Assembly (NCBI RefSeq): GCF_003334305.1
Contig: NZ_QOWS01000018.1
DNA: 64,000 nucleotides
Direction: 5' to 3' (one strand)
DNA from: Escherichia coli
Lineage (GTDB): Bacteria; Pseudomonadota; Gammaproteobacteria; Enterobacterales; Enterobacteriaceae
Shown here: piece by piece, positions 3,228 to 25,762 of the stretch
Numbering within the stretch: position 1 is the stretch's first letter
Layout: every line of letters starts with the position of its first letter
Notes under the pieces: model-generated
Told to the model about the DNA's origin: nothing
The model's input: only the letters and a program-made list of their open reading frames with translations
Database searches by the model: none
Made by a program: the position numbers and the translations under genes

Positions 3228-4628
3228 TCAGAAGCTGGCGTTGCGCGGAGTACGTGGGAACGGAATCACATCACGCACGTTTTGCACGCCAGTTACGTAA
3301 GCAATCAGGCGTTCAAAACCAAGACCGAAACCTGAATGCGGAACAGTACCGTAGCGACGCAGATCGCGATACCACCAGTAATCTTCTTTATTCAGGCCCA
3401 TTTCCAGCATACGCTCGTCCAGAACGTCCAGACGTTCTTCACGCTGGGAGCCACCAATGATCTCACCGATGCCCGGAGCCAGAACGTCCATAGCCGCAAC
3501 GGTTTTACCGTCTTCGTTGAGGCGCATATAGAACGCTTTAATATCTTTCGGATAGTTTTTAACCACTACCGGTGCTTTAAAGTGTTCTTCCGCCAGATAA
3601 CGCTCATGCTCAGAAGAGAGATCGACGCCCCAGTAAACCGGGTTTTCAAACTTCCTGCCGCAGTTTTCGAGAATGGTCACTGCGTCGGTGTAATCCACCT
3701 GCGCGAAATCGGCCTCAATGAAGCGTTCCAGACGTGAAACGGCATCTTTATCTACGCGTTCAGCGAAGAATTTCATGTCGTCTGCGCGTTCTTCGAGAAC
3801 CGCTTTGAAGACATATTTCAGCATGGCTTCAGCCAGACCCGCGATATCGTTCAGGTTAGCAAACGCCACTTCCGGCTCCAGCATCCAGAATTCCGCCAGG
3901 TGACGGCTGGTGTTGGAGTTTTCAGCACGGAAAGTCGGGCCGAAGGTATAAATTTTGGATAATGCGCAAGCGTAGGTTTCGCCGTTCAACTGGCCAGATA
4001 CGGTCAGGAAAGACTCTTTACCAAAGAAGTCTTTGTCGAAATCCACTTTGCCCTGATCGTTACGCGGCAGGTTTTCCAGATCCAGCGTAGAAACGCGGAA
4101 CATTTCGCCTGCACCTTCGGTATCAGATGCGGTAATCAGTGGCGTTGAAACCCAGAAGAATCCCTGCTCGTTAAAGAAGCGATGCAGCGCCTGCGCCAGC
4201 GTATGGCGAACGCGCGCGACGGCACCAATCAGGTTTGTGCGCGGACGCAGGTGAGCGACTTCACGCAGATACTCAATGCTGTGGCGTTTTGCCGCCATCG
4301 GGTAAGTGTCTGGATCTTCAACCCAACCAGCAACTTCAACTTTGCTGGCCTGAATTTCAAATTGTTGCCCCTGGCCCGGCGACGCCACGACTTTACCCGT
4401 CACAATGACCGAGCAGCCGGTGGTCAGACGCAGGACGTCTTCATTGTAATTGGGCAGAGAATTATTGATGACAGCCTGTACAGGATCAAAGCAGGAACCG
4501 TCATAAACGGCGAGGAAGGAGATGCCAGCTTTTGAATCTCGGCGGGTACGTACCCATCCGCGTACGGTGACTTCGCTGTCAACGGCTACGCGGCCCTGGA
4601 GTACGTCGGCTACAGGCACAACGCTCAT
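3228..4628 (-). CDS. asnS: Asparaginyl-tRNA synthetase
   Basis: Track ORF 3228..4673 trimmed to the internal ATG giving [13 protein letters not shown] (466 aa); class II aaRS motifs such as FRAE and GFGLGFERL are present. Confidence 0.95.
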
Positions 4629-4763
4629 AATATTCTCTCTGTTAATAGTCGGAAAAAATAAACACTTGTCCACCCGTAAATGGGGGGATACCTATGTTAC
4701 CTGGCATCTGCAATCAGACAAGCAGAATTCGCAAATGCAGCGAAAGATTTCGGAATTAAAGGT

Positions 4764-20577: not shown

Positions 20578-21588
20578 ATGTACTACCCCTTCGTTCGTAA
20601 AGCCCTTTTCCAGCTCGATCCAGAGCGCGCTCATGAGTTTACTTTTCAGCAATTACGCCGTATTACAGGAACGCCGTTTGAAGCACTGGTGCGGCAGAAA
20701 GTGCCTGCGAAACCTGTTAACTGCATGGGCCTGACGTTTAAAAATCCGCTTGGTCTGGCAGCCGGTCTTGATAAAGACGGGGAGTGCATTGACGCGTTAG
20801 GCGCGATGGGATTTGGATCGATCGAGATCGGTACCGTCACGCCACGTCCACAGCCAGGTAATGACAAGCCGCGTCTCTTTCGTCTGGTAGATGCCGAAGG
20901 TTTGATCAACCGTATGGGCTTTAATAATCTTGGCGTTGATAACCTCGTAGAGAACGTAAAAAAGGCCCATTATGACGGCGTCCTGGGTATTAACATCGGC
21001 AAAAATAAAGATACTCCAGTGGAGCAGGGCAAAGATGACTATCTGATTTGTATGGAAAAAATCTATGCCTATGCGGGATATATCGCCATCAATATTTCAT
21101 CGCCGAATACCCCAGGATTACGCACGCTGCAATATGGTGAAGCGCTGGATGATCTCTTAACCGCGATTAAAAATAAGCAAAATGATTTGCAAGCGATGCA
21201 CCATAAATATGTGCCGATCGCAGTGAAGATCGCGCCGGATCTTTCTGAAGAAGAATTGATCCAGGTTGCCGATAGTTTAGTTCGCCATAATATTGATGGC
21301 GTTATTGCAACCAATACCACACTCGATCGTTCTCTTGTTCAGGGAATGAAAAATTGCGATCAAACCGGTGGCTTAAGTGGTCGTCCGCTTCAGTTAAAAA
21401 GCACCGAAATTATTCGCCGCTTGTCACTGGAATTAAACGGTCGCTTACCGATCATCGGTGTTGGCGGCATCGACTCGGTTATCGCTGCGCGTGAAAAGAT
21501 TGCTGCGGGTGCCTCACTGGTGCAAATTTATTCTGGTTTTATTTTTAAAGGTCCGCCGCTGATTAAAGAAATCGTTACCCATATCTAA
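20578..21588 (+). CDS. pyrD: Dihydroorotate dehydrogenase (quinone)
   Basis: Track ORF begins at a TTG; trimmed to the ATG giving [21 protein letters not shown] (336 aa). Confidence 0.95.
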
Positions 21589-21620
21589 TTATTTCTTCGA
21601 ATTCCTCTTTATAAGATAAT

Positions 21621-21655
21621 CAGGGCTTTATTTTCAGCCCTGGTTGTTTTATATT
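21621..21655 (+). terminator. pyrD intrinsic terminator
   Basis: Stem cagggct/agccctg, loop ttattttc, then gttgttttatatt. Confidence 0.6.
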
Positions 21656-21761
21656 CATCGCTGTTGCTTATTTAGACATTTTGTACTTTTATTGTTGAGG
21701 TTATTAAGCGAAGCGACAATGGATTGTGTTGCTGCGGTTTTATAGGGTAGGGGAGAGGCAG

Positions 21762-22304
21762 ATGCGAATTAAACCAGACGATAACTGGCGTTGGTATTAC
21801 GATGAAGAGCACGATCGAATGATGCTCGATTTAGCCAATGGTATGCTATTTCGCTCACGTTTTGCGCGCAAGATGTTGACTCCAGATGCCTTTTCTCCCG
21901 CAGGCTTTTGCGTTGACGACGCCGCGCTCTATTTCTCTTTTGAAGAAAAGTGCCGCGATTTTAATTTATCTAAAGAACAAAAAGCCGAACTGGTGCTGAA
22001 TGCACTGGTAGCAATTCGCTATCTCAAACCGCAAATGCCGAAAAGCTGGCATTTTGTTTCCCATGGTGAAATGTGGGTGCCCATGCCGGGCGATGCGGCC
22101 TGCGTTTGGTTGAGCGATACTCACGAGCAGGTCAATTTGCTGGTCGTTGAATCTGGCGAAAATGCCGCACTATGCCTGCTGGCACAACCCTGCGTTGTTA
22201 TTGCGGGTCGCGCGATGCAGTTGGGCGACGCCATTAAAATCATGAACGACAGGCTGAAACCGCAGGTTAATGTTGACAGCTTCAGCCTCGAACAGGCTGT
22301 CTAA
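21762..22304 (+). CDS. zapC: Cell division protein ZapC (FtsZ-associated)
   Basis: Track ORF trimmed to [24 protein letters not shown] (180 aa). Confidence 0.9.
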
Positions 22305-23410
22305 CGCGCCAACTTAAGTGCAGTCTTCGGTACACAGCTACAGCAAAGAATGGTGCCATCATCGCCCATTGCTGATTTTTTCAGCGGCGTGACTTCGCCT
22401 TCTAAAAGCTGAACACGGCAACTTCCACAAATGCCCGCGCGGCAAGAATAAGGGATACGAATTCCCTGATTTTCTAATTGCTCCAGCAACACCTGTTGGT
22501 TATTTCCACGAAATGCCTGTCCCTGCCAGTCAATATCTACATTTGCGTCCGGTTGTTGCGTGATGTTGGCGGTATCATCAGCGGCAGCTGCGCCGTAAAT
22601 TTTTGCCGGAGCCGTTGCCAGAATTTCCACCTCATCGCCAACGCGAATCACGCCGCTATTACGGGCAATTAAATTCTGACCAAAATCGACATCGCCGTTA
22701 TCCTGGGCAGTGCGGAAAGATTGCAATGTTTTTAATGGTTCGCCTGCCGGATGTTTTTGCCCTTTTTCTGGGCTGACGGTGGTGAAAATACAGCGGCTAC
22801 AAGGTTTAACCACATCAAACACCACATCACCAATGCGAATCACTTTCCAGCTATCTTCTTCCCAGGCTGACGCGCCGGAAACCACCAGATTGGGGCGGAA
22901 TTGCTCCATTTTTACACTGGCCGGACAACGTTGTTGGAGATCACGTAACGAGGCTTCGTTAGCAAGAAGGTAAGGATAGCCATCAGCAAATGACAGGGGT
23001 ACAGTGTTGTGGCGTTTCACGCGCCGGGTCATTTGTGGCCCCACCCAGCGTAATTGCACTTCGCGGGAGAAAAATCCACTTAGCCATTTGTTGATCGCGT
23101 CTGGCGCAATTCGCGCGGTAAAATGTGTGCCCCAAACTTCGGTTGGTGCGTCTTGTGTGGCGAAATCAGCAAAACGAACATATGCGCTACTGCCATCTGG
23201 TGCGGTGAGATGCAAGCCATCATGCACAGGTGAAGGAGTAAACCGTACCATCTGGGGAAACTGGCGAGCGGTAATAAACGTACCGTCAGGTTCCGTGATC
23301 ATAAAGATGCGATCGAAGGCCAGACCACTGACATCAGCCAGAGCATGTGTAAGACCAATGCCGCGCATCGATTTAACAGGATGAATAAAAAGCCGGGTTA
23401 ATGTCGCCAC
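22301..23410 (-). CDS. ycbX: MOSC-domain protein with C-terminal 2Fe-2S ferredoxin domain
   Basis: 369 aa; C-terminal cysteine cluster [11 protein letters not shown]...CCSC typical of plant-type ferredoxins; 4-bp convergent overlap with zapC. Confidence 0.92.
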
Positions 23411-23653
23411 GGTGCGGTCCTCAAATGAAAATAAGCCCTCAACTTTATGACATGACGCGCTTATTAGCTATAATGCGCAACAATTTTCTTAGCGCCTGTC
23501 CCATTAGGCTATTTTATTTGTCAGTTTGGCCCTGGGTTGTGCTCGAAATCCTCACGTACTTGTGTACGCTCCGGTTTCTCCGCGCTGTCCATGTCCAGAC
23601 TGACTGCAACAATTACGCCTACTGCGGTAGGCTCTTAGAGTAAAAGTGACGAT

Positions 23654-25762
23654 ATGAATTCTCTGTTTGCCAGTACGGCCCGTGGGCTGGAAGAGCTGTT
23701 AAAAACTGAACTGGAAAACCTGGGGGCCGTTGAATGCCAGGTGGTTCAGGGTGGGGTCCATTTCAAGGGCGACACACGGCTTGTTTACCAGAGCCTGATG
23801 TGGAGCCGCCTGGCCTCGCGTATTATGTTGCCGCTGGGCGAGTGTAAGGTTTACAGCGATTTAGACCTCTATCTCGGTGTTCAGGCGATCAACTGGACAG
23901 AGATGTTTAATCCTGGCGCGACCTTCGCTGTCCACTTCAGTGGTTTGAATGACACCATCCGCAACAGTCAGTACGGCGCGATGAAAGTGAAAGACGCGAT
24001 CGTCGATGCTTTCACGCGGAAAAATCTGCCGCGTCCAAATGTTGATCGCGATGCGCCGGATATCCGCGTTAACGTCTGGCTGCATAAAGAAACCGCCAGT
24101 ATCGCTCTTGATCTGAGTGGTGATGGTTTACATCTGCGTGGCTATCGCGATCGTGCTGGTATTGCGCCGATCAAAGAAACCCTGGCAGCCGCTATTGTGA
24201 TGCGATCCGGCTGGCAGCCAGGAACACCGCTGCTCGATCCGATGTGTGGTTCCGGTACGTTGCTGATTGAAGCGGCGATGCTAGCGACCGATCGCGCACC
24301 AGGCTTGCACCGTGGGCGTTGGGGCTTTAGCGGCTGGGTGCAGCATGATGAAGATATCTGGCAGGAAGTGAAAGCGGAAGCGCAAACTCGTGCCCGTAAA
24401 GGCCTGGCTGAGTATAGCTCTCATTTTTACGGTTCGGACAGCGACGCACGGGTGATTCAACGTGCGCGCACTAACGCCCGTCTTGCGGGGATTGGTGAAC
24501 TGATCACCTTTGAGGTGAAAGATGTCGCGCAACTGACCAATCCGCTGCCGAAAGGGCCGTACGGCACAGTGTTGAGCAACCCGCCATACGGGGAACGTCT
24601 GGACAGCGAACCGGCGCTGATTGCGCTGCATAGCCTGCTGGGTCGGATCATGAAAAACCAGTTTGGTGGCTGGAATCTCTCTTTGTTTAGTGCCTCGCCG
24701 GATCTGCTAAGCTGCTTGCAGCTGCGTGCAGACAAACAGTACAAGGCGAAAAACGGCCCGCTGGACTGCGTACAGAAAAATTACCACGTTGCCGAAAGCA
24801 CTCCAGACAGCAAACCGGCGATGGTAGCGGAAGACTACGCCAACCGCCTGCGTAAGAACCTCAAAAAATTCGAGAAGTGGGCTCGCCAGGAAGGAATTGA
24901 ATGTTACCGCCTGTATGACGCCGATCTACCGGAATATAACGTTGCCGTTGACCGTTATGCCGACTGGGTGGTGGTGCAGGAGTATGCGCCGCCAAAAACT
25001 ATTGATGCTCACAAAGCGCGTCAGCGTCTGTTCGATATTATCGCTGCAACCATTTCGGTACTGGGGATTGCGCCAAACAAACTGGTGCTGAAAACCCGTG
25101 AACGCCAGAAGGGCAAAAATCAGTACCAGAAACTGGGCGAGAAGGGCGAGTTTCTTGAAGTTACCGAATATAACGCTCACTTGTTGGTGAACCTGACGGA
25201 TTACCTCGATACCGGTCTGTTTCTCGATCACCGTATCGCCCGTCGTATGCTCGGTCAGATGAGCAAAGGCAAAGATTTCCTCAACCTGTTCTCTTATACC
25301 GGCAGCGCCACCGTGCATGCGGGATTAGGCGGTGCACGCAGCACCACCACCGTGGATATGTCGCGTACTTATCTGGAGTGGGCAGAACGCAACCTGCGTT
25401 TGAATGGCCTGACCGGGCGTGCGCATCGCCTGATTCAGGCCGATTGCCTGGCGTGGCTGCGTGAGGCAAATGAACAGTTCGATCTGATCTTTATCGATCC
25501 GCCAACCTTCTCTAACTCAAAACGAATGGAAGATGCGTTTGATGTTCAGCGCGATCATCTGGCGCTGATGAAAGATTTGAAACGTCTGCTGCGTGCAGGT
25601 GGGACGATCATGTTCTCGAACAATAAACGTGGCTTTCGTATGGATCTCGACGGCCTGGCAAAACTGGGACTGAAAGCACAAGAAATTACGCAAAAAACGC
25701 TCTCCCAGGATTTCGCCCGTAACCGCCAGATCCACAACTGCTGGCTGATTACCGCAGCCTGA
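23654..25762 (+). CDS. rlmL: Bifunctional 23S rRNA methyltransferase (m2G2445 / m7G2069)
   Basis: 702 aa; SAM-binding motifs DPMCGSGT (N-terminal half) and a second methyltransferase domain in the C-terminal half. Confidence 0.93.

Follow-up and report, generated by a model that had tools for sequence, protein, structure and literature searches.

The ycbX locus of Escherichia coli: a mARC-like molybdoenzyme gene, its convergent overlap with zapC and a palindromic element in the adjacent spacer

We analysed a 64,000-nucleotide stretch of Escherichia coli DNA (hereafter the window; contig NZ_QOWS01000018.1 of RefSeq assembly GCF_003334305.1), and in it a feature that a sequence-only reading had placed at 22301-23653 and named ycbX. 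We conclude, with a probability of about 0.96, that the feature is E. coli ycbX. Its product is a molybdoenzyme of the cytoplasm that belongs to the MOSC superfamily, reduces N-hydroxylated compounds and corresponds in bacteria to the eukaryotic mitochondrial amidoxime reducing component (mARC). The gene is already well known: its genetics, the spectroscopy and electrochemistry of its product and the human homologue mARC1 have all been published. Only two items of the locus are mildly non-routine, namely the degree to which the stop-stop overlap with the convergent gene zapC is conserved, and a polymorphic, RSA-like transposable element of the miniature inverted-repeat type (MITE) within the adjacent spacer.

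Results

Identification of ycbX

The open reading frame (ORF) list contains a minus-strand frame at 22301-23410 that runs from a GTG start to a TAG stop and encodes 369 amino acids. In DNA that is 100% identical, RefSeq annotates a coding sequence over exactly this interval as "ycbX: 6-N-hydroxylaminopurine resistance protein YcbX". Many complete E. coli genomes match the region around the gene (21600-23900) with 100% identity, and the region was found in 5426 of 5426 complete genomes; the DNA is at least 99% identical in 3381 genomes. The gene order pyrD-zapC-ycbX-rlmKL-uup is common to the window, K-12 MG1655, W3110, APEC O1 and strain 504239; pyrD lies upstream of zapC, and rlmKL is read on the plus strand from 23654 onward. 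The gene thus occupies the same chromosomal position, between the same neighbours, as ycbX of K-12 (b0947), as expected of its orthologue. The K-12 gene shares with it not only the neighbours pyrD, zapC and rlmKL (rlmL) but also the length, the GTG start and the 4-nucleotide (nt) overlap with zapC, and the protein encoded in the window (WP_000224273.1) shows only allelic differences from that of W3110 (WP_000212426.1).

The name ycbX therefore stands, on the RefSeq annotation of identical DNA and on synteny with K-12, and nothing was found that contradicts it. The interval first assigned to the gene was right at its 22301 end; since the start codon lies at 23410, it also took in a non-coding stretch of 243 bp. 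This stretch, 23411-23653, is the whole ycbX-rlmKL spacer and ends one base before the rlmKL ATG. In one genome, E. coli PD4 (NZ_CP074007.1, 3265319-3268957), the counterpart of window positions 21600-23900 is split in two: about 1.3 kb has been inserted there, with an annotation as IS4-like ISVsa5-family transposase.

A two-domain molybdenum module fused to a ferredoxin

Pfam profiles resolve YcbX into three domains (Table 1): MOSC_N, directly N-terminal to MOSC, and a plant-type [2Fe-2S] ferredoxin domain (Fer2) at the C-terminus, separated from the molybdenum (Mo) module by a linker. The domain search proposed by the sequence-only reading thus returned strong matches to both MOSC and Fer2. 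The N-terminal MOSC domain predicted there is indeed present, but it is the second of two domains, as MOSC_N precedes it; the predicted C-terminal ferredoxin with a CxxxxCxxC...C pattern is borne out by the Fer2 match and by C323, C328, C331 and C357. The juxtaposition of MOSC_N and MOSC, together with a conserved CSRC cysteine, is what defines the YcbX/mARC subfamily in sequence. A search of the PDB returned as best relatives the crystal constructs of human mARC1 (6FW2, E=5.4e-33), which span MOSC_N and MOSC and in which ACSRC aligns with the KPCSRC motif of YcbX, while dozens of plant and cyanobacterial [2Fe-2S] ferredoxins matched residues 300-367 with E values of about 1e-9 to 1e-5.

The protein has nine cysteines, at positions 162, 204, 207, 323, 328, 331, 356, 357 and 359. 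In mARC1, the CSRC motif contains the Mo ligand Cys273 (PMC10637980). By our alignment, and with the ligand role taken from that paper, Cys204 is the predicted Mo ligand of YcbX. The ferredoxin motif reads C323-RAGI-C328-GS-C331 and is followed by C356, C357 and C359. In a pairwise alignment with the ferredoxin of Anabaena, C323, C328, C331 and C357 pair with the ligands Cys41, Cys46, Cys49 and Cys79. We infer that the fourth ligand would be C357 and not C359, which gives a spacing of C-x4-C-x2-C-x25-C, the last spacer having 25 residues against the canonical 29.

Conservation was assessed on ycbX from 80 Enterobacteriaceae species, and the 79 sequences of at least 360 amino acids, which are 69-96% identical to the protein in the window, were aligned. 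All 79 carry the fusion of the Mo module to the C-terminal ferredoxin. Eight of the nine cysteines (C162, C204, C207, C323, C328, C331, C357 and C359) are invariant, C356 being replaced by S, T or A in some sequences, and 135 of the 369 alignment columns are invariant overall. Mean column conservation is 0.86-0.90 in the three domains and 0.58 in the linker (residues 263-293), the pattern that would be expected of a functional two-module enzyme with a flexible tether.

Two species have a premature stop in ycbX, leaving 295 amino acids in Enterobacter sichuanensis (L044) and 350 in Leclercia adecarboxylata NCTC13032 (L076). These truncations remove part or all of the ferredoxin domain and could be real pseudogenes or assembly errors.

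Electron supply and reaction

YcbX and YiiM are the two activities dependent on molybdenum cofactor (Moco) that turn 6-N-hydroxylaminopurine (HAP) into adenine (PMC3831636, PMC5818509), and E. coli that lacks them is hypersensitive to base analogues that are N-hydroxylated (PMC3831636, PMC10637980). YcbX-dependent detoxification extends to hydroxylamine and N4-hydroxycytidine (PMC3831636). The specific electron donor of YcbX is CysJ, the flavoprotein of sulfite reductase (PMC3831636, PMC5818509, PMC10637980), and the ferredoxin domain fills the role that cytochrome b5 has in the mARC system (PMC10637980). By X-ray absorption, the ligands of Mo are dithiolene, a single cysteine and oxo groups (PMC10637980).

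All together, a mechanism may be proposed. MOSC_N and MOSC would hold the molybdopterin-type cofactor, with Cys204, an invariant residue of the CSRC motif, as the Mo ligand, and the flexible linker would tether a ferredoxin domain whose cluster is predicted to be held by Cys323, Cys328, Cys331 and Cys357. Electrons would pass, as proposed in the literature, from NADPH through the flavins of CysJ to the [2Fe-2S] cluster of YcbX and then to Mo and the substrate, the step from cluster to Mo presumably being direct. The outcome would be the two-electron reduction of N-hydroxylated compounds, for instance of HAP to adenine, which would guard the cell from their toxicity and mutagenicity.

Was YcbX rightly described, in the sequence-only reading, as a self-contained electron-transfer and Moco enzyme? 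Neither Pfam nor NCBIfam revealed a flavin- or NAD(P)H-binding domain in YcbX, so the protein has no entry point of its own for electrons and is not a self-contained chain; given its dependence on CysJ (PMC3831636, PMC5818509, PMC10637980), the description was overstated. One could still argue that a general cellular donor reduces the ferredoxin domain and that no dedicated partner is needed, because the domain is fused in cis and conserved, and because generic ferredoxin or flavodoxin reductases often reduce plant-type ferredoxins. YcbX-dependent HAP resistance was, however, reportedly lost in a cysJ mutant (Kozmin et al. 2010, as cited in PMC3831636, PMC5818509 and PMC10637980). The published genetics name CysJ as the specific donor (PMC3831636, PMC5818509, PMC10637980), and fused reductase domains occur only in some Vibrio homologues, so that we hold a YcbX that needs no dedicated donor to be very improbable.

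Comparison with these and other relatives places YcbX more precisely. Human mARC1 and mARC2 (PDB 6FW2) share with it the MOSC_N and MOSC domains, the aligned CSRC motif and a reductive chemistry directed at the nitrogen of N-hydroxylated bases and amidoximes. Unlike YcbX, mARC is anchored to the membrane at its N-terminus and lacks a ferredoxin domain, and its electrons come through a separate cytochrome b5 and NADH-cytochrome b5 reductase, whereas YcbX uses its fused [2Fe-2S] cluster and CysJ. YiiM of E. coli is, like YcbX, a Moco-dependent MOSC protein that converts HAP to adenine and is functionally redundant with it; but it consists of MOSC and a C-terminal helical bundle, without MOSC_N or ferredoxin, and its proposed donor is Fre and not CysJ. 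Vibrio VCA0924 and VPA0411 combine, as YcbX does, a Mo module with a ferredoxin domain, but their polypeptide also includes the flavin adenine dinucleotide (FAD) and NAD(P)H reductase domains, and they are thus truly self-contained (PMC5818509, PMC10637980).

Three points limit our conclusion. The PDB search gave no structure of YcbX itself; NCBIfam has no model of the whole protein, the only matches there being to ferredoxin-domain models (YfaE, plant ferredoxin and others), all below cut-off; and the physiological substrate is debated, as the natural occurrence of N-hydroxylated bases has been doubted (PMC10637980). This last point opens the way to a different main role, either another reduction (of hydroxylamine, N-oxides or nitrite) or the handling of sulfur or Moco, as in the MOSC domain of Moco sulfurases. 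MOSC proteins do reduce many N-oxygenated compounds in vitro (PMC10637980), and the detoxification of hydroxylamine and N4-hydroxycytidine (PMC3831636) fits a broader role. On the other hand, base-analogue hypersensitivity is the sole phenotype reported in vivo for a ycbX mutant, and the fused ferredoxin indicates a redox enzyme and not a sulfur carrier. We therefore consider such a role unlikely, and retain the reduction of N-hydroxylated bases as the main role of YcbX. The base-analogue sensitivity assay of a deletion mutant, which the sequence-only reading had suggested, was carried out in 2008 (Kozmin et al., cited in PMC10637980) and led to the gene's discovery.

The convergent junction with zapC

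The 4-bp overlap of the ycbX and zapC stops on opposite strands, noted in the sequence-only reading, is confirmed by the sequence CTAA at 22301-22304, within which the two stop codons share 2 nt. The overlap is widely conserved: 72 of the 80 species retain 4 nt, as TTAA (58), CTAA (9) or TTAG (5). The eight exceptions comprise the two apparent truncations of ycbX described above and six species in which both genes are retained without the 4-nt overlap, four having gaps of 4-70 bp (L022, L059, L071, L078) and two having longer overlaps of 13 and 23 nt (L027, L041). The longest gap, in Citrobacter amalonaticus S646 (L022, about 4611-4686), is due to a relative of the spacer MITE described below: about 70 bp inserted exactly in the shared stop, with TAA on both sides. 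Through the TAA target duplication, zapC and ycbX each acquired a separate stop, and a gap of 70 bp replaced the 4-nt overlap.

With the stops overlapping and no spacer between the genes, there is no intergenic terminator, and the zapC and ycbX transcripts must overlap at their 3' ends. Indeed, a terminator scan downstream of both stops found just weak hairpins of 5-7 bp inside the coding regions, none of them convincing. Just after pyrD, at 21621-21642 of the window, lies a GC-rich hairpin (CAGGGCTTTATTTTCAGCCCTG) with a T-run after it, which resembles a pyrD terminator; were a ycbX transcript to read through zapC on the minus strand, no hairpin of any strength would come before this one. NCBIfam gave no match for ZapC.

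It is tempting to see in this junction a regulatory excludon, in which transcription of either gene represses the other through the 3' antisense overlap. The conservation in 72 species of many genera, the want of a convincing intrinsic terminator after either stop and the presence of the pair in the 2025 ExcludonFinder list of convergent pairs with overlapping transcription, drawn from E. coli RNA-seq (PMC12288877), speak for it. However, stop-stop overlaps of 4 nt are the commonest type of convergent overlap in bacteria and are hard to lose, as a mutation in the shared stop extends an ORF. Because such overlaps are mutationally "sticky", their conservation alone is no proof of function, and the six species that lost the overlap have kept both genes. 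The ExcludonFinder list holds 165 such pairs, of which zapC-ycbX is one (PMC12288877). Moreover, ZapC acts in cell division and has no known functional link to base-analogue detoxification, and no report of mutually repressive expression of zapC and ycbX was found in the literature. All told, we regard an excludon as improbable and view the overlap as a compact convergent junction.

A polymorphic MITE in the ycbX-rlmKL spacer

Most of the 243-bp spacer is taken up by a palindromic element of 143 bp, outside ycbX and flanked by TTA duplications (Table 1). It is a MITE: it has terminal inverted repeats (GAGCCTATCCCA.../...TGGGATAGGCTC), a target duplication and no coding capacity, being too short to encode a transposase, and both dispersed copies and empty sites are found. 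The empty site reads TTCTTA|GAGTAAAAG in APEC O1 and about 75 other species; the APEC O1 spacer is 97 bp long, and its alignment to the window leaves a clean 146-bp difference. On either strand, the element folds as one long imperfect hairpin, at -55.5 kcal/mol (z=-4.55) and -51.8 kcal/mol (z=-4.05).

Presence at this site is polymorphic within E. coli, since a megablast of the spacer alone found it near full-length in 4191 of 5426 E. coli genomes (about 77%). Another E. coli has a spacer of 223 bp, with an element 20 bp shorter at the hairpin tip. Among the 80 species, nearly all spacers measure 93-104 bp; spacers of about 242 bp occur only in Escherichia (E. coli, E. whittamii and Escherichia sp. 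E1V33), the element being missing at ycbX-rlmKL from nearly all other Enterobacteriaceae genera sampled.

Two further signals in the spacer were dismissed. An 80-amino-acid ORF across it (23401-23643, plus strand) was rejected as a gene, for it is created by the MITE and missing wherever the MITE is missing. The sole match of an Rfam scan of 21400-24000 (E<=1), the Xanthomonas RNA sX9 on the MITE hairpin tip, was below threshold (25.8 bits, where the gathering score is 44; E=0.059) and was treated as a chance match.

Other copies define a dispersed family. The megablast of the spacer found a second matching place in every E. coli genome, and the spacer between qseE and qseG has a paralogous copy with 88% identity (L002 2501-2647, in E. 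coli ST648). This copy takes up almost all of that spacer inside the qseEGF operon, in the orientation of the operon, and every E. coli genome appears to carry one. By distant BLAST matches, an E. coli genome has at most 8 such places (the median is 5), and K-12-like strains have 6. When metagenome contigs were scanned for the pattern, 95 loci came back, in which full-length relatives occupy at least 12 different insertion sites. To go by the flanking ORFs, the sites in other enterobacteria include dsbD/yjdC, ilvY/ilvC, yicG and gmhA/yafJ; since the gmhA-yafJ spacer of K-12 holds REP sequences and not this MITE, the metagenome gmhA/yafJ copy belongs to another species. The family has the terminal inverted-repeat consensus GAGCCTATCCCATTAGGC... 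and a 3-bp TTA or TAA duplication at 9 of 10 sites, and it shows no consistent orientation relative to neighbouring genes. Its hairpin is conserved: over eight independent copies, 48 pairs are formed with 93.6% of cells paired, and 8 of the pairs show double compensatory changes.

Two variant forms were met with. A composite of about 220 bp, with an extra GC-rich hairpin nested in mid-element, occurs in one cluster of metagenome contigs (L109, L124, L134, L136, L140, L144), where it lies between a gene resembling an ABC-transporter ATPase and a substrate-binding-protein gene, and also in metagenome loci L106 and L170. On the 103-kb E. coli plasmid pEGY2 (NZ_CP023144.1; L086 1501-1551), a 51-bp remnant of the left half, 84% identical, immediately precedes a gene for an MBL-fold hydrolase, and the same remnant is found in four metagenome contigs.

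The element is probably a member of the old repeat family RSA. RSA appears in old K-12 records with 150/151 bp and 6 copies (PMC5172473), and BEE95 appears as its synonym in the reference list of PMC3751351. Both are intergenic imperfect palindromes of about 150 bp at 6 places in K-12, the match being one of size and copy number. The MG1655 and W3110 records have no RSA or other repeat feature at the ycbX-rlmKL spacer. Among other enterobacterial MITEs of the ERIC/IRU type, ERIC also forms a single long hairpin, but the spacer element has a TTA/TAA target duplication and no similarity to the ERIC primer sequences.

A presumed rlmKL promoter upstream of the MITE

Between the ycbX start and the MITE lies a promoter-like ATGACA-N16-TATAAT site (Table 1). 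The block that contains it (23447-23478) is conserved in spacers from Escherichia to Buttiauxella, Cedecea and Klebsiella sp., and a short inverted repeat (GCGCTTATTAGCTATAATGCGC) surrounds the -10 element. From its sequence, the block is probably the rlmKL promoter. The site is upstream of the MITE, which would be transcribed within the rlmKL 5' leader should this promoter assignment hold. Since most genera have a spacer of only about 98 bp, the promoter of the divergent gene ycbX must overlap this block.

Table 1. Coordinates of the features at the ycbX locus, in window positions.
Feature	Position	Strand	Basis and remarks
ycbX coding sequence	22301..23410	-	GTG start 23408-23410, TAG stop 22301-22303; ORF list and RefSeq
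MOSC_N beta-barrel, residues 1-116	23063..23410	-	Pfam PF03476, E=1.4e-33; aligns with the N-terminal part of mARC1 6FW2
MOSC, residues 139-262	22625..22996	-	Pfam PF03473, E=6.1e-23; KPCSRC motif, Cys204 codon 22799-22801
Linker between Mo module and ferredoxin domain, residues 263-293	22532..22624	-	Poorly conserved; column conservation
Plant-type [2Fe-2S] ferredoxin domain (Fer2), residues 294-362	22325..22531	-	Pfam PF00111, E=4.1e-15
Predicted ferredoxin ligand codons	Cys323 22442-22444, Cys328 22427-22429, Cys331 22418-22420, Cys357 22340-22342	-	Translation
Shine-Dalgarno-like GAGGA, 7 nt upstream of the ycbX GTG	23418..23422	-	From sequence; similar GAGG motifs in orthologous loci
zapC, convergent neighbour, 180 amino acids	21762..22304	+	RefSeq annotation of identical DNA; translation
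4-nt overlap CTAA with both stops	22301..22304		zapC TAA 22302-22304; ycbX TAG is the reverse complement of 22301-22303
Promoter-like ATGACA-16 nt-TATAAT, presumed rlmKL promoter	23447..23474	+	11/12 consensus positions
Palindromic MITE, 143 bp, RSA-like, outside ycbX	23492..23634		TTA duplications 23489-23491 and 23635-23637

Discussion

To the enzymology of YcbX itself this analysis has little to add, as the enzyme is characterised and the experiments proposed in the sequence-only reading have been done. The interest of the locus lies at the two ends of the gene. Could both ends be regulatory, the junction with zapC acting as a functional excludon and the MITE, possibly still mobile, reshaping gene junctions and altering the expression of rlmKL, and possibly of ycbX, between phylogroups? 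We hold this to be improbable, and retain a compact junction on one side and a polymorphic MITE on the other. Were the excludon real, a cell-division factor and a base-analogue detoxifying enzyme would antagonise each other's expression. If the conserved block is the rlmKL promoter, the rlmKL 5' leader of about 77% of E. coli would owe to the MITE a hairpin of about -55 kcal/mol. The conservation of the overlap and a polymorphic MITE that targets TTA may be of interest, albeit incremental, to those who study small mobile elements or the regulation of convergent genes. YcbX keeps its value as a model of human mARC, the simplest that bacteria offer; mARC metabolises drugs and is a target in liver disease.

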